This document shows, piece by piece, positions 609 through 20,153 of a stretch of 26,097 bases of DNA. The first letter of the stretch is position 1, and every line of letters begins with the position of its first letter. The stretch spans positions 1 to 26,097 of the forward strand of contig CAZWBV010000002.1 in NCBI GenBank assembly GCA_964632225.1, written 5' to 3'. The notes under the pieces are model-generated. The model had not been told where the DNA came from. It ran no database searches and was given only the letters and a program-made list of their open reading frames with translations. The position numbers and the translations under genes are program-made. The stretch is from an uncultured Gammaproteobacteria bacterium (GTDB taxonomy: Bacteria; Pseudomonadota; Gammaproteobacteria; SG8-11).

Positions 609-1199
609 ATGAAAATAACTGTGTTAGTGTTGGTGTTTGTTATAGCAGGGTGTGCGATAGATCAACGAAAATACATGTTTCCAAGAGAACGAGGAACGTT
701 GCCAGACAAGGTATACAAAGTTGATGAACCATTCGAAAAAGCATGGACAACGCTTGTTAACTATGCTCCAGGAAAATATTTTACAATTAGAAATGCGAAT
801 AAAGAATCTGGATTGATCACACTCCATTTTGGCAGAACACGGCCTGGAAACTATATAGATTGTGGAAACGTACCGGTCAAAAGTCTGAATAGGTCAGTGT
901 CATATATTGGCGTTGTAGAAAATTCAGGTGCAGTAGAATTATTGGGGACAGCGAATCTGATTATAAAATCAATTGATGAAAACAATACAAGTATTTCATT
1001 CACTACGCATTATGACCTTAAAATAAAAGATGGAGACTTGCCCAAACAAACTTGGAATTTTGCCACAAATGAAAGGCAATCGAGGAATGTAGGTGAACTT
1101 ACGATTATGTGTATGTCAACTTTTGCTGCGGAAGTTGACATTGTTGCCGGCATCAACTTTATTACTGGTGGTCACACTAGGGAGGTTGTCCAAGAATAG
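609..1199 (+). CDS. Hypothetical lipoprotein; last 6-7 codons supplied by a MITE
   Basis: MK + hydrophobic stretch + lipobox VIAG-C15; 196-aa ORF. The codons from 1181 to the stop lie inside the MITE left end. Confidence 0.75.
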   Translation: MKITVLVLVFVIAGCAIDQRKYMFPRERGTLPDKVYKVDEPFEKAWTTLVNYAPGKYFTIRNANKESGLITLHFGRTRPGNYIDCGNVPVKSLNRSVSYIGVVENSGAVELLGTANLIIKSIDENNTSISFTTHYDLKIKDGDLPKQTWNFATNERQSRNVGELTIMCMSTFAAEVDIVAGINFITGGHTREVVQE

Positions 1200-1422
1200 A
1201 GAACCTACTGCGGACCTCGGTACCCCCTTGAGGGGTGAAAGCCGTTTGAGTCAAATTTTTCGATAAAACACGCTCTTTTTATAAGAGAATATACCCAATA
1301 TTTGCCTACAGGGATGTAGGCAAGGAGCGCAAGCAGGACGCGGTAGCTGCGCCTTATTTTATCGAAAAATTCTAACCAAAATGACTTTCCCTCGCAACGG
1401 TTTCTGTTCTCGGGCAGCCTCC
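1181..1422. mobile_element. 242-bp MITE with 20-bp imperfect terminal inverted repeats and a 3-bp TAG target duplication
   Basis: Left end GGAGGTTGTCCAAGAATAGA (1181-1200) versus reverse complement of the right end GGAGGCTGCCCGAGAACAGA (1403-1422): 16/20, all four mismatches transitions. TAG directly flanks both ends (1178-1180, 1423-1425). Internal perfect 15-bp IR (1254-1268/1357-1371) and hairpin TTGCCTACA-ggga-TGTAGGCAA (1302-1323). No coding capacity. Confidence 0.8.
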
Positions 1423-1446
1423 TAGTAATACTATATTGTATTCACA

Positions 1447-1734
1447 ATGAAGAAAATTAATTTTCCCTATATCGCATTGGGCTTAGGCCTTATCCTTATG
1501 TTGGTGGTCGTTAAAGGCAGTGAAGAACGTGGTGAGGCGGTTACAGCTATACCGCTGCTTAGCCTGCTTGTAATAAATGAGTTTGCATTTTTTGTAACCG
1601 CTATTGGTGCATATATAGGAATTAGGCAAATTGTGTCTGTCGGCGTCAAGCCTGTTTATGCGATAACCACTGTATTTTGTGTTTTATTATCTATCCGGTT
1701 TTTGATATTGGGGATAAATCTTTGGCCTCTCTAA
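1447..1734 (+). CDS. Small hypothetical inner-membrane protein (about 3 TM segments)
   Basis: 95-aa ORF with three hydrophobic stretches (YIALGLGLILMLVVV; IPLLSLLVINEFAFFVTAIGAYIGI; YAITTVFCVLLSIRFLILGI). Confidence 0.75.
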   Translation: MKKINFPYIALGLGLILMLVVVKGSEERGEAVTAIPLLSLLVINEFAFFVTAIGAYIGIRQIVSVGVKPVYAITTVFCVLLSIRFLILGINLWPL

Positions 1735-2898: not shown

Positions 2899-3008
2899 CG
2901 CGGTTTTCTTTTCGAGGCGGATCGAATTATGATCTATATTTCCATGTTACGTGGCATAAATGTCAGTGGCCAAAAGAAAATTAAAATGGATGATCTGAAA
3001 TCTCTTTA

Positions 3009-3040
3009 CATCAAAAGGGGTCAACATCAAAAGGGGTCAA
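3009..3040. repeat. Perfect 16-bp tandem duplication (CATCAAAAGGGGTCAA x2)
   Basis: Read directly: 3009-3024 and 3025-3040 are identical. Confidence 0.9.
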
Positions 3041-3567
3041 AAACGTTTTATTGATTCATAGTGAATCCTGGGCCTGACCAACCGAACCCCTTAAAACTAC
3101 TAAGCAATATCCGAAATAAACGTGAATATTTACTTCTAATTAGCCCTCTATACCCCGAAAATGGTGCTTTTAAGGATGAATGAATCACTTGACCCCGCGT
3201 AAAATATTTTTATGCTCCTGTAGATGGTTTGGTCAGACCTAAGATTAGCCGAACTCTGGATGGGTTTAAAACGTAACAAGGATAAATGATGCTAATAGCA
3301 GAATTCCGGGGTCGATAGGATTAACGCCCCCCATCCATCGGCGACAGTTAATTATGCTAATCATTGTCCCAGTGTAGGTTTAGTCGTTGTGAAAGAGAAA
3401 AAACCTAACTCAAAAAAAGCGTTCATCGGGTAGTTGAGTATTGTGTCCCTAGAATTTTTTTAATACGATTTGAAAAGAATTTCATTGGAAGATTGAATTT
3501 ATAATAATATTTATTACAATAGCGGTTTGTTTTTTTGAAAAAAATCATTGGGGTCTATCGTCGTATT

Positions 3568-7223: not shown

Positions 7224-7586
7224 TTAAAGAAGATCCGAAATCCCGCCTGCGGCTCTTTTTACATCCAGAAAAATTAAACCCAATTTTGCCTTTGGCTTGG
7301 CTAACACGGTCACTACCGCTTCATCGCCCGCTTGTGCCATTAAAACGTATCCGTTTTCGCCTTTAATTAAAATCTGATCGAGTCGCCCGCGGGTTAATTC
7401 GGACGCAGTACGCTCACAGAGTGACAACATGGCCGCGCTCATTGCACCCATGCGGTCTTCGTCAAGCGCGCTTGGTAATACGGAATCGATCATTAGTCCA
7501 TCAGTGGAAATAACCGCAGACGCTTCAATGTCAGGTGAGGTGCCGTTTAGTTCGTTTAAAATAGAATTAATCATTTCATTTCTCAT
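7224..7586 (-). CDS. Roadblock/LC7 (MglB-like) domain protein
   Basis: DIEASAVISTDGLMI..., DRMGAMSAAMLSL, LDQILIKGENGYVLM, KLGLIFLDVKRAA are typical Roadblock motifs. AAGGAG RBS 8 nt upstream of the ATG, inside the last codons of the globin gene. Confidence 0.93.
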   Translation of the reverse strand: MRNEMINSILNELNGTSPDIEASAVISTDGLMIDSVLPSALDEDRMGAMSAAMLSLCERTASELTRGRLDQILIKGENGYVLMAQAGDEAVVTVLAKPKAKLGLIFLDVKRAAGGISDLL

Positions 7587-7588
7587 TG

Positions 7589-8194
7589 CTATAACTCCTT
7601 ATTATATGTTTTTTGTGCATTCGCTGACTCTTTAGCGTCATATGCGGTTGCCAGGTTGTTAAATAATACTGTGCTCATGCCGGTGATTGATAAAAATCGA
7701 TTTAAGACTTCCGAGACCGATGCCTGATATGAGGCTTGCATAACCAGCAAAGAAAACCCAAATATTGCATTAATTGCACTTAAGACTTCAATACATTTCT
7801 CAGGTTCATCTGCATATAATTTTGAAACAATAAGGATGAGTTCATTTGTGATCAATGTTATGCCACCCGACATGAATTCAACGGGTAAATCGATTTGTAC
7901 GTGTACGTAACCAACTCGATGCATTGTTTCTACATAGGACTGGTCATATTTACCAGAAAAGACAGTTTTCAACCAAATAAGGTGAGTTTGTTTCAAATAG
8001 TCGATTCTTCCTTCAATAAAGGGTACCGCTTTTGGCACCTTTTGCAAATTGGCATAAAACCGGTCAGTTACCCCAGATAAGTGGGGTATTATTTTATATC
8101 CTGCTTCGGTTAATATCGCTTCTTTTTCAGGTGTCAATCTTGAAAACACCTTAGCGTATTGACCTATTTGTGCAAAGTCAACTGCATCCGACAT
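7589..8194 (-). CDS. Stand-alone protoglobin / globin-coupled-sensor-type globin
   Basis: DRFY (B10 Tyr), LKQTHLIWLKTVFSGKYD..Y, RVGYVHV (proximal His F8). No fused output domain, only a short C-terminal extension. GAGGAG RBS 6 nt upstream. Confidence 0.88.
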   Translation of the reverse strand: MSDAVDFAQIGQYAKVFSRLTPEKEAILTEAGYKIIPHLSGVTDRFYANLQKVPKAVPFIEGRIDYLKQTHLIWLKTVFSGKYDQSYVETMHRVGYVHVQIDLPVEFMSGGITLITNELILIVSKLYADEPEKCIEVLSAINAIFGFSLLVMQASYQASVSEVLNRFLSITGMSTVLFNNLATAYDAKESANAQKTYNKEL

Positions 8195-8274
8195 ATGATT
8201 CTCCTCTTTCTCATATTAACGATTATTGACGTACAGACACATTTTTTTCGGCCAATAATAGAGCAAAATTTCAA

Positions 8275-8934
8275 TTATGATTCGCCGTATCGGATGCTCA
8301 GTGCCCAAATCAGGTGAGTGAGCACGGGTTGGTTCAAACTGGGTGCGCCACCTATTGCCAATACAAATCGGTGTTGGCCTATATAGAGTGGCCAGAAACC
8401 TATTTGACTGTTACCCGCAGCATCAACTAACGCCCAGGCGCTGGTTTGTAGGTCTAAATTGTTGCTTAATAAGTCCAAATGACGTTCTTGTAATGAAGCC
8501 AGGTCGGCACTCAGCGCTGAAAGTTCATCAACAAATTGTTGTTGAAAACCACAACTTGCGAGATAAAGGCCCTGATGATCAGCAAGTAACGCATTACCTT
8601 CGACTGATAACGGTGCAAGTAGGCCAGGTAGTATATTTTCGAGTACATCAGCAGGCACATTTTGAGAGGATTCAGTTCCCTGGAGCCAGCCTTTTGCTTG
8701 TACACGATTGAGCAAATTCATGGCGTCGGTGTCATTATCTGCTTGAGTCCAGGTTTTCAGATCATCTAGCGTTAACAATGGGCTTCGTCTGTGTCGCAAC
8801 AGAGTGGTTAATAGTGTTCTACACGGGTCCTTTTGCGGGCGGGATACAGCGAAATAAGCCCCCGCCGGCGTCGGCATAACATAGAGCTTGTCAGCAGACA
8901 TTTCTGGGCTTTCAGCTTTTTCTTGGTATATCAT
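8275..8934 (-). CDS. Roadblock-like (degenerate, MglC-like) protein with an N-terminal helical/winged-helix-like region
   Basis: C-terminal half ALLADHQGLYLASCGF...ELSALSADL...FWPLYIG..RFVLAIGG shows the Roadblock/profilin-like strand-helix pattern. The start could instead be 8901 (MSADKLY). Confidence 0.65.
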   Translation of the reverse strand: MIYQEKAESPEMSADKLYVMPTPAGAYFAVSRPQKDPCRTLLTTLLRHRRSPLLTLDDLKTWTQADNDTDAMNLLNRVQAKGWLQGTESSQNVPADVLENILPGLLAPLSVEGNALLADHQGLYLASCGFQQQFVDELSALSADLASLQERHLDLLSNNLDLQTSAWALVDAAGNSQIGFWPLYIGQHRFVLAIGGAPSLNQPVLTHLIWALSIRYGES

Positions 8935-9040
8935 TATTGAGAACGGTTATCAGGAGACAGTACCAGCAATAAACAAAAGAAAATGTGTAATTTGTTTTAT
9001 CTTATTTTGTTTTATATTAAATCGCATATTTACACTGCTT

Positions 9041-10837
9041 TTATATCCGGGTGGATCGCACCTTCCTTATCATTTTTTTAAACAGGCTATCTTTTTTTAA
9101 CGCTTGTTTTTTTATATATTTATCCATACCGCCTATCCTGAATTCCGGTTCGATATACAAACTACTGAATTTTAGCAAATCGAGTGCCCAAGCGGCACTT
9201 AGAAAAGTAAATACGTCACGTTGTGGAATGTCCAGCGTTTGGGATGTCATCAACAGCGTGCAAGGTTCTTCGGCCCACAGTGATGCTATTTTTAATGCAG
9301 TGGCGGATAATTTAGGCTTGGGAATATTCGGCATTTTCCCCAAATACATATGCCTGCTTAAATCCGTGCCTTCAGGAATGCGGCCGCGTGACGCCCGGGT
9401 AGCAAGTTTCCACATAAAAGGGTCATAATCAAACAGCAGGCCTTCTTCTTTACATATATCATCATGAGAATCAGATAATACTGATATTGTTATATTTTCT
9501 CGTATTATAGGTACGCTACTCAGTGCAAATAATGAACGTTCACTTACTGTTAGCGAGGATTCTGGGTTAGGCTTTAAAAATACTTGTTTTGTTTGGTACA
9601 AAATAATAATTGATTGTAATGGACCTTGTAGCAGCACATTTTTTCTATTTAGTTGTGCCAGTTTAAATGCTTCTTTCAAATATCCCTGAAGATAGTTGCC
9701 AGGGTTATAATATATTCCTTCTTTATCTGCAATTTCTGAATTGTCGTTAGTGCTTTTGTTTGTATCGGGAGAAGTATCTAATTCTTCTAATTTTTTTACT
9801 GCGTCTTCAATGCTTAGTTTAATGGGCGATGGAGATGGAGTCGAATCATCTTCAGATGAATTTGAGTTTTGATCTTTAAAATTGAAGCCCCCATCCATTA
9901 AGGGTACTGAAGAAGTCGTGTCAGAAGTCGCGTCGAGTACGTTTTCCGCATCACTACCCGCCGTATCAGTATTCATCTTTGAGTCCCCAATATTTTCTTC
10001 TTCCGCTATATATTTATTTGCAGTTTTATCGAATACAATTTGTGGATTTACTTTTCCGACCTGAATTGTTGAATTAGATGGTGAAATTGAAATAATTCGT
10101 TTGGTTTTTTTTGCTTCCTTATTTGTCGGATTAGTTGTTAGATTAGCCGCCAGATCAGTTGCCGGATTAGGTTTTACTAAGCTGAGAATTTTAGCGTCCG
10201 ATTGAGTCTTATTAGTAGCAGGGGCATCACTTTTTATTTTTTTTTCCACTAATTCTTCAATATTTAGCCGCGCTATATTTTTAACGGCTAGGTTTCCATT
10301 ATCGATTTGCCTGATTTTTTCTATTAATGAAAGAGGTCGCTGTTTAGCCGTTTTTAGCGCTTTGGTATTTTTTACATTTTTCTGGCTTTTATATATAGTA
10401 GAAGATTTTTTTGCCTTTTTATCTGTTTTTTTAATTTTTGCCTTTTGTGATTCAATGCCAGATACCGATTGCAATTGTATTCGAACTTCGTTTAGGGCAT
10501 TTTTGAGTAATTTGCTGTCGATAGGTTTTCGCAAAAACACGCCATCTTCAATATTGGGTTCTTTAATGGATTCAAGTATGACAGGCCGGTTTGGATATTT
10601 GTCGCGGTGGTTTTTCCATGCCTGTTTTGAATCATAAACATCCATATCTATTATGCTGACATCGGCGTGTTTATCGTCAGATAAAACATAACTATTCATA
10701 CAGGGACCACGAAAAAACATGCGTAATGCGTTGATCGATTGTTGGCTCAATCCAATAGTCGATACGCGTAAAGAATTATCTTGTTCAAAAACCATTTTTC
10801 CCCCTAGTGGCATTCCTGTATATTCGATTTCAGTCAT
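9041..10837 (-). CDS. Atypical receiver-domain protein with a long disordered linker and a globular C-terminal domain
   Basis: N-terminal region has IIDMD (beta3 Asp), ILES and LRKP, but no acidic pair at beta1. A Lys-rich then Asp/Ser/Asn-rich linker of about 250 aa follows, then YYNPGNYLQGYL...ASRGRIPEG...VFTFLSAAWALDLL. The start could be 10795 (GGGGG 4-5 nt upstream). Confidence 0.7.
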   Translation of the reverse strand: MTEIEYTGMPLGGKMVFEQDNSLRVSTIGLSQQSINALRMFFRGPCMNSYVLSDDKHADVSIIDMDVYDSKQAWKNHRDKYPNRPVILESIKEPNIEDGVFLRKPIDSKLLKNALNEVRIQLQSVSGIESQKAKIKKTDKKAKKSSTIYKSQKNVKNTKALKTAKQRPLSLIEKIRQIDNGNLAVKNIARLNIEELVEKKIKSDAPATNKTQSDAKILSLVKPNPATDLAANLTTNPTNKEAKKTKRIISISPSNSTIQVGKVNPQIVFDKTANKYIAEEENIGDSKMNTDTAGSDAENVLDATSDTTSSVPLMDGGFNFKDQNSNSSEDDSTPSPSPIKLSIEDAVKKLEELDTSPDTNKSTNDNSEIADKEGIYYNPGNYLQGYLKEAFKLAQLNRKNVLLQGPLQSIIILYQTKQVFLKPNPESSLTVSERSLFALSSVPIIRENITISVLSDSHDDICKEEGLLFDYDPFMWKLATRASRGRIPEGTDLSRHMYLGKMPNIPKPKLSATALKIASLWAEEPCTLLMTSQTLDIPQRDVFTFLSAAWALDLLKFSSLYIEPEFRIGGMDKYIKKQALKKDSLFKKMIRKVRSTRI

Positions 10838-10893
10838 TTTTCATAAAGTAATAAATCTTTGCGAAATAAACTTAATAAATCCAATGATCTGGA

Positions 10894-11403
10894 TTAAAAA
10901 TTGTTTCGCAGGTGCTCGGTTAAACGCGTTGTACCCGTCAAACCCATTGCTAACACAGCATGGCCTGCCAACGGCATGACAGTCGTTGAATTTATCCCCT
11001 GTATTAATTTTTTCTTCATAGCGTCGTATCTAGGCCGGGTGAGTAATGCTTTGGATCTACCGAGCATTCTTGTTTTTAGTGTTTTACCATTTTTTCCAAT
11101 AGCGATAAATAAATCCAATAAAGCACTGTATGTTCCTTCCCTGTCTTGCAATTTTATGTGGAGGTTAATTCTTTGCACATGGTTTCGTAGGTCACCCGGT
11201 ATTCTTGCAACCCGTCTTGCCAGGTAGTCTGTCGTTTTCTCTCCCCAGTTACCCGGATCTAAGTTCACTGAATTAGTTGCAGGAATTAAGAAGCTCAGCT
11301 CAATATCTGAAGCACACTCAAACGCGATATACGCGGCCGACGGATCGAAACGCGTAGGCACAGAGTATAGAGATGAATTGTCGTAATTTAGACTTAACGC
11401 CAT
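10894..11403 (-). CDS. Conserved hypothetical helical protein, first gene of the roadblock/globin cluster
   Basis: LARRVARIPGDLRNHVQRI...ALLDLFIAIGKNG..LKTRML looks like a real helical protein. Same strand as, and 56 nt from, the next gene. ATG 11403 preferred over ATT 11427. Confidence 0.7.
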   Translation of the reverse strand: MALSLNYDNSSLYSVPTRFDPSAAYIAFECASDIELSFLIPATNSVNLDPGNWGEKTTDYLARRVARIPGDLRNHVQRINLHIKLQDREGTYSALLDLFIAIGKNGKTLKTRMLGRSKALLTRPRYDAMKKKLIQGINSTTVMPLAGHAVLAMGLTGTTRLTEHLRNNF

Positions 11404-12005
11404 AGGCACACCGTGATTCTTAATCAAATTCGAATAAATGCTACATTGTGTATTGTTAATTTATAAATTGTGTAATTGTCAAGTACTAAACAAAGGCAGC
11501 AATTTCTTGTTTTTCTATTATTATCCGGGAAGTCTTAACAAGATATTAATTATTGAATTTTGTAAAAAAATGTCTATGTTATCTATGTTATTAAAGATTG
11601 GATATGTTGTATCATTGGCACCAATTTAGCTGTTGCATCTCAAGCAATCATGTATCCAAAGTGATAATTATAATCGCTGCTCAAAGTTATTAGCCTATGA
11701 TTAGTTATAATACAGAGCGATAAATTAATAGATCGCTATAGTGTTGTCGATGCTTTTTTAGTTGATTAACCTTAACCCACGTTCGATGTGCAGGTACGCA
11801 TTGACATACTTCCCAAAATAGGAAGCCCCGCTAAATCTCTTCATGTGAGTGAGTTCTTTGGGGAAAAATCAGAGAGTTAATTGCAGAAGCCAGGCTGACT
11901 AAATTCTCTGCTGCTTTGTAATTCATCGGTTGTTTTCAGATGATATGCGCGTGGTGCCTTACTGAGTTTGGATTGAGTGTGGATTTTTCGCCAGTGCAGA
12001 TTAAT

Positions 12006-17258: not shown

Positions 17259-17987
17259 TTATTTCGATTTTTCCAGCCATGCGTGAAGTTTTTCTTCTTC
17301 TTCTTTTATCACATAGGCATTAATTAACCCTCGTCTTAATGCGATAGATATTGCGCGTGTTCTTGGGTTTGCCATTTCATTGCCAGTTTCTGATTCGGGA
17401 AAGTCGAGTTCAATGCCTAGCTTTGCGTAGAGGGATTTGAGCCTGTTTTGTACTCCGCGTCGTGACAGGTAACGCCGTTCTGCAATTGCGTTGTCTTTTA
17501 AGCCCAATGCAATATCGATAAGTGCTTCGCACTCTCGGTCTGAAAGTGCACTATCAGATCGAGCAAGCCTAGCCTGCACTGGGCGAACCTTTGGGTCGAT
17601 CCAGCATTGCGACTCTTCAAATACTGCATTGATTGCCTTTGACAGCATTTTGGATCGATTATTCTTCAAAATATACCCGTAAACTGTTTCTGGCGGTATT
17701 ATTTTTGCCAAAGAACGCACGTACATTTCATCATCATATTGTGACCATATAATAATTCTTGCTTCTGGGTTGCTTTGCCATATGTTTTTTGCCAGCGCAA
17801 TACCATCAATCCCTGGCATTTGTATATCGCTAATGATCAGTGGTGATTGCATTCTGCCGATTTCAAACAGTGCATCAGTGCCATTTGCGACACATACGAC
17901 ATTGTAATTTGATAATAAATGACATAAAAAATCTATATCCCTGGGATTGTCATCGACGATCAGTATTTGTGAGCTGTGCTTTTTCAT
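17259..17987 (-). CDS. NarL/LuxR-family response regulator
   Basis: ILIVDD, IISDIQMPGIDG (phospho-Asp), GYILK, and C-terminal LSDRECEALIDIALGLKDNAIA...VQNRLKSLYAKLG HTH. Confidence 0.92.
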   Translation of the reverse strand: MKKHSSQILIVDDNPRDIDFLCHLLSNYNVVCVANGTDALFEIGRMQSPLIISDIQMPGIDGIALAKNIWQSNPEARIIIWSQYDDEMYVRSLAKIIPPETVYGYILKNNRSKMLSKAINAVFEESQCWIDPKVRPVQARLARSDSALSDRECEALIDIALGLKDNAIAERRYLSRRGVQNRLKSLYAKLGIELDFPESETGNEMANPRTRAISIALRRGLINAYVIKEEEEKLHAWLEKSK

Positions 17988-17993
17988 TGTTTA

Positions 17994-18967
17994 TCAATTT
18001 CCTGTAATCGGAAGTCGCAGGTCAAGTTTCACACCACTGCTAAAACGTGACCGTGACCAGCTAATGCTTGCACTTATTGACCGCGCTCGTTCTTGTATAT
18101 TCGTCAGACCCCTTCCTTTTTTAAGTAAGGCTGAATTTACTGACATACCGACGCCGTTGTCTTCAATCAGCAACATGATTTTGTCGTTTGTATGCCATAA
18201 TGAAATTTCCAGTTTATTGCAATGCGCATGACGAATGACGTTGTGAACCGCTTCTTGAATTATTCTATAAAGACTGAGGCTTTGATAATCGGAAAGATAC
18301 TGATCTACTCCAGGGTCTATATTCAAACAATACCCTGGCAAATTCTATTTGCGCTTGATGACAGCGCTGCAAGTCTTTTTCTGGTCATCGTTATTGTCCA
18401 AAATGAAAGCGCCAGGCCAGCGGTAACACACATTATCAGTATTGCTATTGATACATTGAACAAAATTGGCCCTGTGATCTGTAAATTTTCATAGTATTTT
18501 ATATAGGCCTCGCGTTTTTTGGCCCAAATCAGTTGGTAGGATGTTTCTAGACGCGGTAAAAATGTTTCTAACAGCTTACTGGCCGATTCAACTTCAAGCG
18601 GTTCTTTGAACATTAATTCTTTGACTGACTGTTCAATGTATTTTTGAGATTCTTTTGGCATTTTGTCGAAACACTCAGGACAGTTAACGCTGTCTGAGAA
18701 AATTTGGTGTTGTTCAATATAATTGAACAACAAATCTTCATCTTGTACCGAAGGAGAGGGTGACATTTTTTTTAGAATAGATTGCATACGCTGACCTGCA
18801 CCGATCGCGACGTGCAGGCGGTCTGAAATTCGTCCCCATTGCCGTACAGTTTCATTTTCTGACTGTAGTTTTTCATAGTAGGTGAGGGTAAACCAGACTA
18901 ACCCGGCGAGCATGAAAATCATGATAGCTGGTGTGATAAGTATTTGATACTTAAGGTGAATTTTCTT
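17994..18967 (-). pseudogene. Sensor histidine kinase (HisKA_3/NarX-type) with an internal deletion, a frameshift and an apparently mutated start codon
   Basis: The upstream frame encodes TM1, a periplasmic sensor, TM2 and the start of a HAMP (RKRLAALSSSANRICQG), then stops at 18323. An overlapping frame resumes just before the N-box (LYRIIQEAVHNVIRHA) with DNGVG, GRGLTNIQERA and GVKL. No H-box is present in either frame. Confidence 0.8.
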
Positions 18968-19154: not shown

Positions 19155-20153
19155 GTGTTTATTATCGGATATGTACAAAAAAAACTAAATTCATCTCTAT
19201 TCCAGCTCAATATATTTCTATTCAGTATTTTCTTGATGAGTAGTGCCGGTTTCAGCTACGCCGCTAGCCATGAAATTCCCAGTCTTGCAAACCCGAACCT
19301 GACTAAAGTGACTGATAGGGTATACGCATTAATCGGTGAAATGGCGATCCCGAATGAAAAAAATGATGGTTTTATCTGTAATAGCGTTTTTGTGATTACC
19401 AATGAGGGTGTTGTGGTTATCGATCCGGGGGGGACGCTGCAAATTGGCCGCATGGTTATTGACGAAATACGTAAAATAACAAAAAAACCCATTACGCATG
19501 TTATTAATACGCATCATCATGCCGACCATTGGATGGGTAACCACGCATTTGACGATCTAAATCCAAAACCAGAAATACTCGGGCACCTTGTCATGAAAGA
19601 GACTGCGGAGGAGATAGGTGAACGTTGGCTTGAAATTATTTCTAACCTGACCAAAGGTAAAAATAAAGGTACAAAAATAATATTACCCACTCGCACAGTA
19701 GAGGGTAACGAAACACTTAAAATAGGTGGGTTAACATTTCAACTGTTTCACCCGGAACATGCTCACACCAAGGGGGATATCGCTATTTATATTCCAGAGG
19801 AAAAAGTGTTGCTCCCTGGCGATATTTTTTTCTATATACGTACCCCGGGTTTTCAAGATGCCAGTCCATTGGGGAATGCAGAAGCGCTTGAGGCGCTTAA
19901 AAAACTGGACTTCGATAAGGTGGTACCCGGTCATGGTCCTGTTACAGATAAGTCTGGCATTGATTACATGCTCAACTTTATTCATCTGGTTCATCGCGAG
20001 GTTAAAAAATATCTGGACCAAGGGCTGGCCGATTTTGAAATGAAAGAAAAAATTAATGTAGGAAAATATAAAAACATGTCTGGTTTTAAAGATCGATTTG
20101 GAATAATTATTAATCGTATGTATCTTGAAATTGAAGAGCGGGAATTTCAATAA
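19155..20153 (+). CDS. Exported metallo-beta-lactamase-fold hydrolase (SoxH-like / quinoprotein-relay-type)
   Basis: AGGAGG RBS 5 nt before GTG; N-terminal hydrophobic signal region; VVIDPG, INTHHHADHWMGN, AHTKGD, LPGDI, VVPGHG. Confidence 0.85.
   Translation: MFIIGYVQKKLNSSLFQLNIFLFSIFLMSSAGFSYAASHEIPSLANPNLTKVTDRVYALIGEMAIPNEKNDGFICNSVFVITNEGVVVIDPGGTLQIGRMVIDEIRKITKKPITHVINTHHHADHWMGNHAFDDLNPKPEILGHLVMKETAEEIGERWLEIISNLTKGKNKGTKIILPTRTVEGNETLKIGGLTFQLFHPEHAHTKGDIAIYIPEEKVLLPGDIFFYIRTPGFQDASPLGNAEALEALKKLDFDKVVPGHGPVTDKSGIDYMLNFIHLVHREVKKYLDQGLADFEMKEKINVGKYKNMSGFKDRFGIIINRMYLEIEEREFQ

Follow-up and report, generated by a model that had tools for sequence, protein, structure and literature searches.

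An operon pairing a sensor-lineage protoglobin with two Roadblock proteins: a candidate GTPase-less variant of the Group 3 MglA/MglB module in a gammaproteobacterium

The subject of this analysis is a five-gene operon in an uncultured Gammaproteobacteria bacterium (assembly GCA_964632225.1), found on a stretch of 26,097 nucleotides (nt) of contig CAZWBV010000002.1 (positions 1 to 26,097, forward strand) that we refer to in its entirety as the window. Five minus-strand open reading frames (ORFs), here named H, R, W, P and B, span 7224-11403 and are separated by gaps of 56, 106, 80 and 2 nt; the coordinates and gaps reproduce those given in a first-pass annotation made from the DNA letters. The first gene of the operon is H (10894-11403), which encodes a helical protein of 169 amino acids (aa) from its ATG, or 177 aa if an upstream TTG is used. 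It is followed by R (9041-10837; 598 aa), encoding a receiver-like, linker and winged-helix protein, W (8275-8934; 219 aa), with a Roadblock fold in its C-terminal half, P (7589-8194; 201 aa), a protoglobin, and B (7224-7586; 120 aa), a canonical, MglB-like Roadblock/LC7 protein. Pfam and NCBIfam gave no meaningful match for H, R or W, with NCBIfam adding nothing.

The layout of the last two genes is tight. The stop codon of the globin gene (7591-7589) is followed by a 2-nt gap and the ATG of B at 7586, and the AAGGAG ribosome-binding site of B (7595-7600, minus strand), read directly from the sequence, lies within the final codons of the globin gene. By this layout, B is translationally coupled to the globin gene. 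A sigma-70-like promoter match, TAGACA-16-AATAAT, lies 5' of H (11549-11576, minus strand; 10 of 12 positions, a consensus match only), and a consensus scan of the minus strand found no terminator-like sites in the four intergenic gaps. In comparison with a congener, the ratio of nonsynonymous to synonymous substitution rates (dN/dS) is 0.05-0.21 for all five genes at dS 0.5-0.9, which we take to mean that all five are functional and under purifying selection.

The globin P matches the Protoglobin family (PF11563, 1.5e-24), has no second Pfam domain, and comprises the globin and a tail of about 40 aa. Its best sequence matches in the PDB are sensor globin domains, those of a Geobacter globin (2w31) and a globin-coupled histidine kinase (5ohe), followed by HemAT, DosC and an anti-anti-sigma factor (7o0i). 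Judged by these similarities, P is a single-domain globin of the sensor (S) lineage. Tyr47 (B10) and His98 (F8) are invariant in 21 P homologues, and haem binding is predicted from these two residues. Additionally, part of the C-terminal tail (aa 160-187), outside the globin fold, is highly conserved in the same homologues. The genome carries a second protoglobin-domain gene in a 357-aa open frame (locus L158 on contig C66 of this genome, G000; 2943-3401 in genome coordinates), which probably encodes a conventional globin-coupled sensor with an output domain.

Roadblock proteins generally dimerise and are known chiefly as NTPase regulators. B belongs to this family by its Pfam match (PF03259 Robl_LC7, 4.7e-15), and with the Protoglobin match of P this bears out the stand-alone globin and the canonical Roadblock of the first-pass annotation. 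The dN/dS of B is 0.046, and the aligned module-linked homologues, including those from GTPase-containing modules, are 65-79% identical, with a mean column identity of 68%. W is more distant. A model built from a 28-sequence alignment (predicted local distance difference test, pLDDT, 89.4) shows a small alpha/beta domain at the N-terminus (aa ~18-87), followed by a Roadblock/LC7 fold at the C-terminus, and its top Foldseek matches are MglB (6hjm, 1j3w, 3t12) and other Roadblocks, with Myxococcus and Thermus MglB on top (E-values of about 1e-4; template modelling (TM) scores by target of 0.55-0.6). The degenerate roadblock that had been proposed for W is thus borne out by a modelled structure whose C-terminal half matches MglB and other Roadblocks, and on this model W is the more divergent of two MglB-like proteins, with its gene serving as the module's signature. 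The W family comprises 253 clusters at E<=1e-10 among 1.84 billion representatives. In two of its members, P0040 (474 aa) and P0076 (470 aa), the W region lies at ~268-470 and the protein is twice the usual length, which suggests a fusion with an upstream module gene. A complex prediction for W, B, the globin and haem, with the globin as the partner, scored 0.06 against a mark of 0.32, and counts neither way.

R can be divided into three parts. Its N-terminal domain (10463-10795, minus strand; aa ~15-125) is receiver-like, with an hhalign probability of 92.9% and an E-value of 3.7e-7 against 12 receivers of the same genome, and the earlier proposal of an atypical receiver at this end has therefore held up. 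Profile searches against PDB sequences with the N- and C-terminal ends of R returned either nothing or, for this N-terminal region, weak response-regulator matches; designed TIM barrels, which came out as top PDB-sequence matches in R profile searches, were rejected as a repeat artefact. In alignment numbering, where aa 15 is position 1, D52 and K90-P91 are invariant and D50 and S76 nearly so. The pseudo-receiver retains the acceptor-position Asp, the Ser/Thr and the Lys-Pro, and lacks the N-terminal acidic pair. The linker that follows (9746-10462, minus strand; aa ~126-364) is of low complexity, rich in K, S, T and N, and unconserved, which explains the range of R lengths across homologues, from 385 to 985 aa. 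R is 32% identical to its homologue in the operon of a Candidatus Thiodiazotropha metagenome-assembled genome (MAG).

The conserved C-terminal domain of R (9041-9745, minus strand; aa 365-598) consists of an alpha/beta subdomain and then a winged helix, and an AlphaFold model of these 234 residues reaches a pLDDT of 88. The winged helix (model residues 127-198) has VIA Z values of 9.0 and 8.7 to winged helices of subunits in the SEA/GATOR1 entries 8adl_S and 8fw5_B, and of 6-7 to many winged helix-turn-helix regulators. PATAN and DUF742 are families of known companions of MglA-type GTPases. Among AFDB clusters, the neighbours of the C-terminal domain are uncharacterised relatives together with PatA-like/DUF4388 (PATAN) and DUF742 proteins at E-values of 7e-5 to 1.5e-4 and TM 0.25-0.29, one DUF742 protein having a Foldseek E-value of 1.4e-4 and TM 0.29. 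Foldseek against the PDB with the same model returned nothing at E<=1e-3, and Pfam at E<=1 on 41 R C-termini gave scattered single matches only, none of them to DUF742. We regard the modelled C-terminus as weakly PATAN/DUF742-like, a similarity that serves as a lead only. R had also been called RomR-like. That description fits its outline of receiver and linker but probably not its C-terminus: RomR is described as a receiver, a Pro-rich linker and a Glu-rich C-terminal tail, whereas R ends in a folded alpha/beta and winged-helix domain.

H is 41% identical over 103 aa to the product of the 249-aa first gene of the Thiodiazotropha operon, and its dN/dS against the congener is 0.15. Full-length homologues of about 248 aa have sub-threshold matches to TPR_14 and TPR_19 at aa 170-215. 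From these alignments, H is a shortened member of a family of ~248-aa proteins that heads the module in relatives, and is without their C-terminal TPR-like tail. The non-conserved N-terminal part of H (aa 23-77; window 11173-11337, minus strand) has a 55-aa match to LuxD/Acyl_transf_2 (PF02273) at 23 bits, against a cut-off of 20.3 bits. This match is absent from the homologous part of H relatives and was set aside as probably spurious.

To describe the distribution of these genes we used a sample of 400 genomes of the class, from 320 genera, in which W occurs in 33 genomes of 28 genera, and a scan of named genomes with a 9-sequence W alignment, which yielded 80 loci; about 100 related loci have the order H-R-GTPase-W-B. 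Hosts of the 80 loci are Thiodiazotropha, Sedimenticolaceae, tubeworm endosymbionts, Thiocystis, Methylophaga, Methylococcales, Chromatiales, Thiothrix, Leucothrix, Cocleimonas, Thiolinea and a few Betaproteobacteria. The gene order is H-R-G-W-(P)-B, with G a GTPase gene, in nearly all of the 30 genome loci and the 80 named loci, and the Thiodiazotropha MAG agrees with the window in both genes and order, with one extra gene, for a PF03029 GTPase of 178 aa, between R and W. Because the arrangement recurs in 33 of the 400 sampled genomes and in the 80 named loci, it is far beyond chance, and we conclude from this comparison that the five genes are a real, conserved operon. Rearranged versions exist in two Methylophaga-type loci (L059 and L063), where W, B, a PAS gene and a PhnD gene come first and R-G lies about 1.3 kb downstream, with R duplicated in L063. 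In loci of Thiothrix, Leucothrix and Thiolinea (L097-L120; for example L113, 3594-3986 and 8026-9762), a bactofilin gene lies upstream, and several of these loci have a coiled-coil protein of ~520-580 aa downstream. These flanks in the Thiotrichaceae may reflect a cytoskeletal or polarity link, or just inherited gene order in one family.

The module corresponds to one that has been catalogued before. Group 3 MglA systems of beta- and gammaproteobacteria were defined by Wuichet and Sogaard-Andersen (2015, Genome Biol Evol 7:57; PMC4316618), who describe a protein whose N-terminus is predicted to resemble a receiver and whose C-terminus is predicted to include a winged helix, with a linker of variable length between the two, accompanied by one or two MglB homologues, and GTPases with an atypical G4 motif (off [NT]KxD) and a DAR-type G5. 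The authors also proposed a transcriptional output (PMC4316618). Within the text of that paper that could be searched, the word globin has no occurrences, and PAS, CZB, PhnD-like and H genes are not named as typical components (PMC4316618). Since R, W, B and the relatives' GTPase match the published description point by point, we read the window operon as a Group 3 derivative: by sequence comparison, it is a lineage-specific, GTPase-less variant of the Group 3 MglA/MglB module with an inserted globin. It shares with Group 3 systems an R-type protein, Roadblocks (two here, one or two there), an in-place GTPase with atypical G4 and G5 motifs in its relatives, and a proteobacterial host, with the relatives supplying the beta- and gammaproteobacterial range. 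It differs in having no GTPase in the locus, a protoglobin between the Roadblocks and an H without the TPR-like tail. This match to a separate MglA system speaks against a module of the Myxococcus MglA/MglB/MglC/RomR type and against a conservon, the two known systems that the first-pass annotation named for comparison.

Within the class sample, this globin is found in 8 of the 400 genomes (E<=1e-10), and all eight also have W, against the background of 33 in 400. The globin adjoins the module in seven of the eight, in two of them in the order W-B-P instead of W-P-B. Of the 80 loci from named genomes, 14 have P between W and B. The neighbourhood survey had been set beforehand as the test of whether globin and Roadblock genes are syntenic in other genomes, and on these counts they are.

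The position beside B is shared with other proteins. When the flanking ORFs of the 80 loci were clustered and the recurrent clusters annotated, a 157-aa stand-alone PAS protein was found next to B in 29 loci, usually followed by a cytoplasmic PhnD-fold (PhnD-like) protein, which occurs in 31 loci, and a 123-aa CZB (chemoreceptor zinc-binding) protein was found in 11. Mixed loci exist, with globin, PAS and PhnD or with globin and CZB, and at least one of these proteins is present in about 48 of 78 scorable loci. The culturable carriers Thiothrix, Leucothrix, Cocleimonas flava, Thiocystis violacea and Thiolinea disciformis have PAS/PhnD, CZB or no sensor that was recognised. One GTPase-less locus (L034 in genome G199; 740-1474, minus strand) has a 244-aa PhnD-like ORF, itself one of the PhnD-type queries of the survey, between W and B, the slot that the globin occupies in the window. 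The wider W-B gaps without a globin (L052, L053, L058, L060, L062 and L123) contain no convincing ORF. That other stand-alone sensor-type proteins fill the position beside B is the strongest argument for treating the globin as an input device. From gene neighbourhoods, the likeliest role of the globin is that of a swappable gas or redox input to the Roadblock pair and not that of a bystander. The first-pass suggestion that the globin feeds a Roadblock-based switch fits the synteny, the haem-binding residues and the slot shared with PAS and CZB.

The GTPase itself is missing from the window operon, in which neither the ORFs nor the gaps hold a GTPase ORF. It is also absent from the operon of the congener, whose W is 88% identical, and from those of the next relatives (L048-L050 and L053), and at least five further genomes, with W identities of 57-88%, retain the order without a GTPase. 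Elsewhere in the genome, a MAG that is 69% complete, there are two GTPases, on contigs C6 and C106, which are 59-61% identical to the Thiodiazotropha operon GTPase and PF03029/CvnD-like. The G4 and G5 motifs are TRVD and DGR in the C106 copy, and TQMD and DAR in Thiodiazotropha. In a maximum-likelihood tree, which is unrooted, the C6 and C106 types form one clade (100/99) nested among in-operon GTPases; the tree is consistent with relocation and duplication in this lineage, and we make no claim about the order of events.

The two paralogues have different surroundings. The C6 copy (178 aa) heads a cluster (L003 on contig C6; 6191-11214, minus strand) that also encodes a fusion of an ABC-ATPase with a DSP/PTP phosphatase domain (451 aa), a protein of 134 aa, a 150-aa Roadblock that is 45-47% identical to B, and a 702-aa receiver-PAS-GGDEF-EAL protein. 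The 134-aa protein has an hhalign probability of 1.6% against the Roadblock profile, and no family was detected for it. From its gene content, this cluster may be a GTPase/Roadblock switch wired to cyclic di-GMP (c-di-GMP). Just downstream (L003 4100-5695, minus strand) lies a 531-aa protein in which a 2Fe-2S ferredoxin is fused with an FAD/NAD reductase and with a globin of the truncated (bacterial-like) kind, adjoined by a CxxCxxCC protein. The C106 copy, 75% identical to that of C6, is an orphan (L011/L142 on contig C106; ~8331-8867, minus strand). In the congener, a GTPase of the C106 type (L141, 978-1529) has a GNAT acetyltransferase gene on one side and, on the other, the gene of a 1051-aa subtilase that carries CARDB repeats. 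On sequence grounds, the C106 GTPase is a candidate trans partner of the window operon.

The coupling of a globin to a Roadblock has a published precedent. HGbRL of Methylacidiphilum infernorum is a globin fused to a Roadblock/LC7 domain, with a solved globin-domain structure, and its authors propose ligand-induced conformational signalling from the globin to the Roadblock (Teh et al. 2015, PMC4476040). The same organism has a gene pair of an MglA-like GTPase and a Roadblock elsewhere in its genome; HGbRL is reported from Methylacidiphilum alone, with a globin that belongs to the flavohaemoglobin-like (M) lineage and forms a site-swapped dimer (PMC4476040). Both systems thus couple a haem globin to a Roadblock/LC7 domain, there in one polypeptide with an M-lineage globin and here in separate ORFs, with a stop codon and 2 nt between them and an S-lineage protoglobin. 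The fusion provides an independent argument for globin-Roadblock coupling. Our literature search found no paper combining a protoglobin and a roadblock, and a search for MglB and globin led only to HGbRL. The statement in the first-pass annotation that no characterised system has this composition needs to be narrowed in view of the fusion.

Other known systems resemble the operon in part. Globin-coupled sensors and sensor single-domain globins such as HemAT, AfGcHK, DosC, GsGCS and Vibrio RsbR share the lineage of P, its Tyr-B10 and its His-F8. Unlike the globin-coupled sensors, P has no fused transmitter (MCP, GGDEF, kinase or STAS), and its presumed transmitter would be a separate Roadblock protein; a Roadblock partner for sensor-lineage globins is not described in the literature that we searched. 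Conservons (CvnA-D; Mfp) also combine a CvnD-type (PF03029) GTPase with a Roadblock that is a candidate GTPase-activating protein (GAP), have a small winged-helix-like partner (DUF742), and differ between clades in their accessory proteins. The DUF742 protein MfpC is reported as being a GEF (guanine nucleotide exchange factor; PMC11343762). In contrast to conservons, the module has no CvnA-type histidine kinase, its R is a pseudo-receiver fusion without a DUF742 sequence match, it has two Roadblock-fold proteins instead of one, and its host is proteobacterial. Pfam detected no HisKA or HATPase_c domain in the five proteins, and none was found among the module genes or recurrent flanking families of related loci. 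Like the operon and its relatives, the MglA/MglB/MglC/RomR-RomX set of Myxococcus xanthus places paired Roadblock-fold proteins and a receiver-plus-linker protein around a small GTPase, but that GTPase is a Group 1 MglA and the partner genes are dispersed. We know of no sensor protein encoded with mglB in Myxococcus.

Taking these lines together, we consider it probable, with modest confidence, that the operon is a Group 3 variant in which W and B regulate an MglA-like GTPase encoded in trans and the haem state of the globin modulates the Roadblock pair. W and B would form a Roadblock heterodimer acting as a GAP or other regulator of either the C106 orphan or the C6 copy. R would be a scaffold and/or an exchange factor, as the analogy with DUF742/MfpC and PATAN proteins suggests; alternatively, it would be a DNA-binding output. 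The signal would be a ligand or redox change at the globin haem (O2, NO, CO or sulfide, where oxic and anoxic conditions meet at a vent), and the conserved C-terminal helix of the globin would relay the haem state to the Roadblock pair and thereby set the GTP/GDP state of the switch. A search of public sequencing runs listed none of RNA that matches, and the sole strong match to this DNA is a DNA run of a hydrothermal-vent metagenome, probably the source sample. Because of this source, and because the carriers are mostly sulfur and methane oxidisers dwelling in gradients, O2, sulfide and NO are plausible ligands.

There are two candidates for the output, namely type IV pilus motility or polarity on the one hand and transcription by way of R on the other. 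To our knowledge, no Group 3 system has been studied biochemically, and a study of Snodgrassella is the only phenotypic one that we found. There, the orphan mglB of a Group 3 mgl system had alleles that promoted colonisation of the gut, potentially via altered type IV pilus motility (PMC11112851). The genome analysed here encodes three PilT-family ATPases above the family cut-off. These ATPases and the bactofilin and coiled-coil flanks of the Thiotrichaceae would suit a motility or polarity output, which here is an analogy; they do not count as evidence for this operon, and a transcriptional output is just as compatible with the winged helix of R.

The proposed GTPase switch faces several difficulties. 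In one genome (G332) the globin is located apart from the module, and no Roadblock gene adjoins a globin that is 46% identical (P0032). Because related genomes are not independent samples, the synteny counts are descriptive and exceed the independent events behind them. For the GAP and GEF roles, the models are Group 1 (Myxococcus, Thermus) and Group 2 (conservon, Mfp) systems, used as analogies. The W-B, P-B and P-W contacts are putative and haem binding is predicted; with no GTPase in the operon, action through a GTPase is inferred, and it may involve either paralogue or neither, in a genome that is 69% complete. A broader version of the scheme can be offered tentatively, although it is rather unlikely. 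Interchangeable sensors (haem globin, PAS, CZB and PhnD-fold proteins) would dock on the W-B heterodimer and adjust how it acts as a GAP, while R would serve as exchange factor or scaffold, a logic convergent with eukaryotic nutrient sensing by Ragulator and GATOR. The unit of sensor, Roadblocks and R could be encoded apart from the GTPase and may serve two paralogous GTPases, one of them wired to the c-di-GMP enzyme on C6.

As an alternative, the system may have been rewired to do without a GTPase, with R, W, B and the globin forming a haem-responsive complex whose output is R itself, for example through DNA binding by the winged helix. Clade-wide loss of G from the operon (in the window, the congener, L048-L050 and L053) while the other genes remain under purifying selection would suit this, as would the shortening of H, with loss of its TPR-like tail, in the same clade, and the winged helix of R together with the transcriptional output that Wuichet and Sogaard-Andersen proposed. 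Yet the genome still encodes a pair of GTPases of precisely this type, of which one is an orphan without partners, and B shares 65-79% identity with Roadblocks from modules that include the GTPase, so that its interface looks unaltered; with Roadblocks acting chiefly on NTPases elsewhere, we judge such rewiring unlikely. The loss of G and the truncation of H relative to the canonical module might instead mark a decaying remnant that is drifting to pseudogenes. With five intact frames, dN/dS of 0.05-0.21 at dS 0.5-0.9, and a GTPase-less order kept in at least five further genomes whose W is 57-88% identical, decay is scarcely credible.

The first-pass view of the locus, a true counterpart of Myxococcus MglB/MglC/RomR that sets polarity or surface motility with the globin as gas input, can draw on the MglB fold of W and B, the Snodgrassella mglB alleles with their potential type IV pilus effect, the three PilT-family ATPases, and the bactofilin and long coiled-coil genes that flank Thiotrichaceae loci. 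It is quite unlikely, given that the GTPases are CvnD-like (PF03029; G4 TRVD/TQMD, G5 DAR/DGR) and so of Group 2/3 and not Group 1 MglA, that R ends in an alpha/beta and winged-helix domain and not in a RomR-type tail, that W has an extra N-terminal domain, and that no motility genes are found among the annotated proteins of the window, which speaks against polarity; the bactofilin neighbours occur in one family only and may be inherited gene order. A last possibility concerns the globin, which might be a metabolic haem protein for O2, NO or sulfide handling or for detoxification, sharing a transcript with the Roadblocks and sending them no signal. P has no output domain, is kept elsewhere in one genome and has the 46%-identical relative without a Roadblock neighbour, as such a protein might. 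A metabolic role remains very doubtful for a globin of the sensor lineage, which finds its best matches among the sensor domains of globin-coupled kinases, of cyclases and of HemAT, gives way to bona fide sensor folds (PAS, CZB) at this position in other loci, is placed beside B in two different orders, and has a conserved tail outside the globin fold.

The surroundings of the operon are unrelated to it. Its flanks are a convergent SulP transporter and a DbpA helicase, both identified with Pfam, and the remaining genes of the window are housekeeping genes. Elsewhere in the window, a 332-aa protein of metallo-beta-lactamase fold (19155-20153, plus strand) scores above the Pfam cut-off for ODP (32.5 against 27.2 bits). 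At 17259-18922 on the minus strand there is a LuxR-type response regulator (242 aa), preceded by a 115-aa ORF with HATPase_c only and a 199-aa ORF without a family, which overlap each other and may be a split or frameshifted histidine kinase.

The Group 3 core has been catalogued since 2014 and the globin-Roadblock fusion published since 2015; what is new here is a stand-alone S-type globin as a candidate plug-in sensor, together with a GTPase that would be supplied in trans, with the mechanistic steps being our proposal throughout. Group 3 MglA/MglB systems are widespread in beta- and gammaproteobacteria, including Neisseria, Xanthomonas, Stenotrophomonas and sulfur- and methane-oxidising symbionts. 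The sensors encoded beside their Roadblock genes, whether haem globin, PAS or CZB, provide a concrete, testable hypothesis for the input of Group 3 switches, and a Roadblock protein becomes a candidate partner for orphan sensor single-domain globins. Additionally, the clade without an in-operon GTPase is a natural experiment on whether a Roadblock-sensor unit needs a dedicated GTPase.

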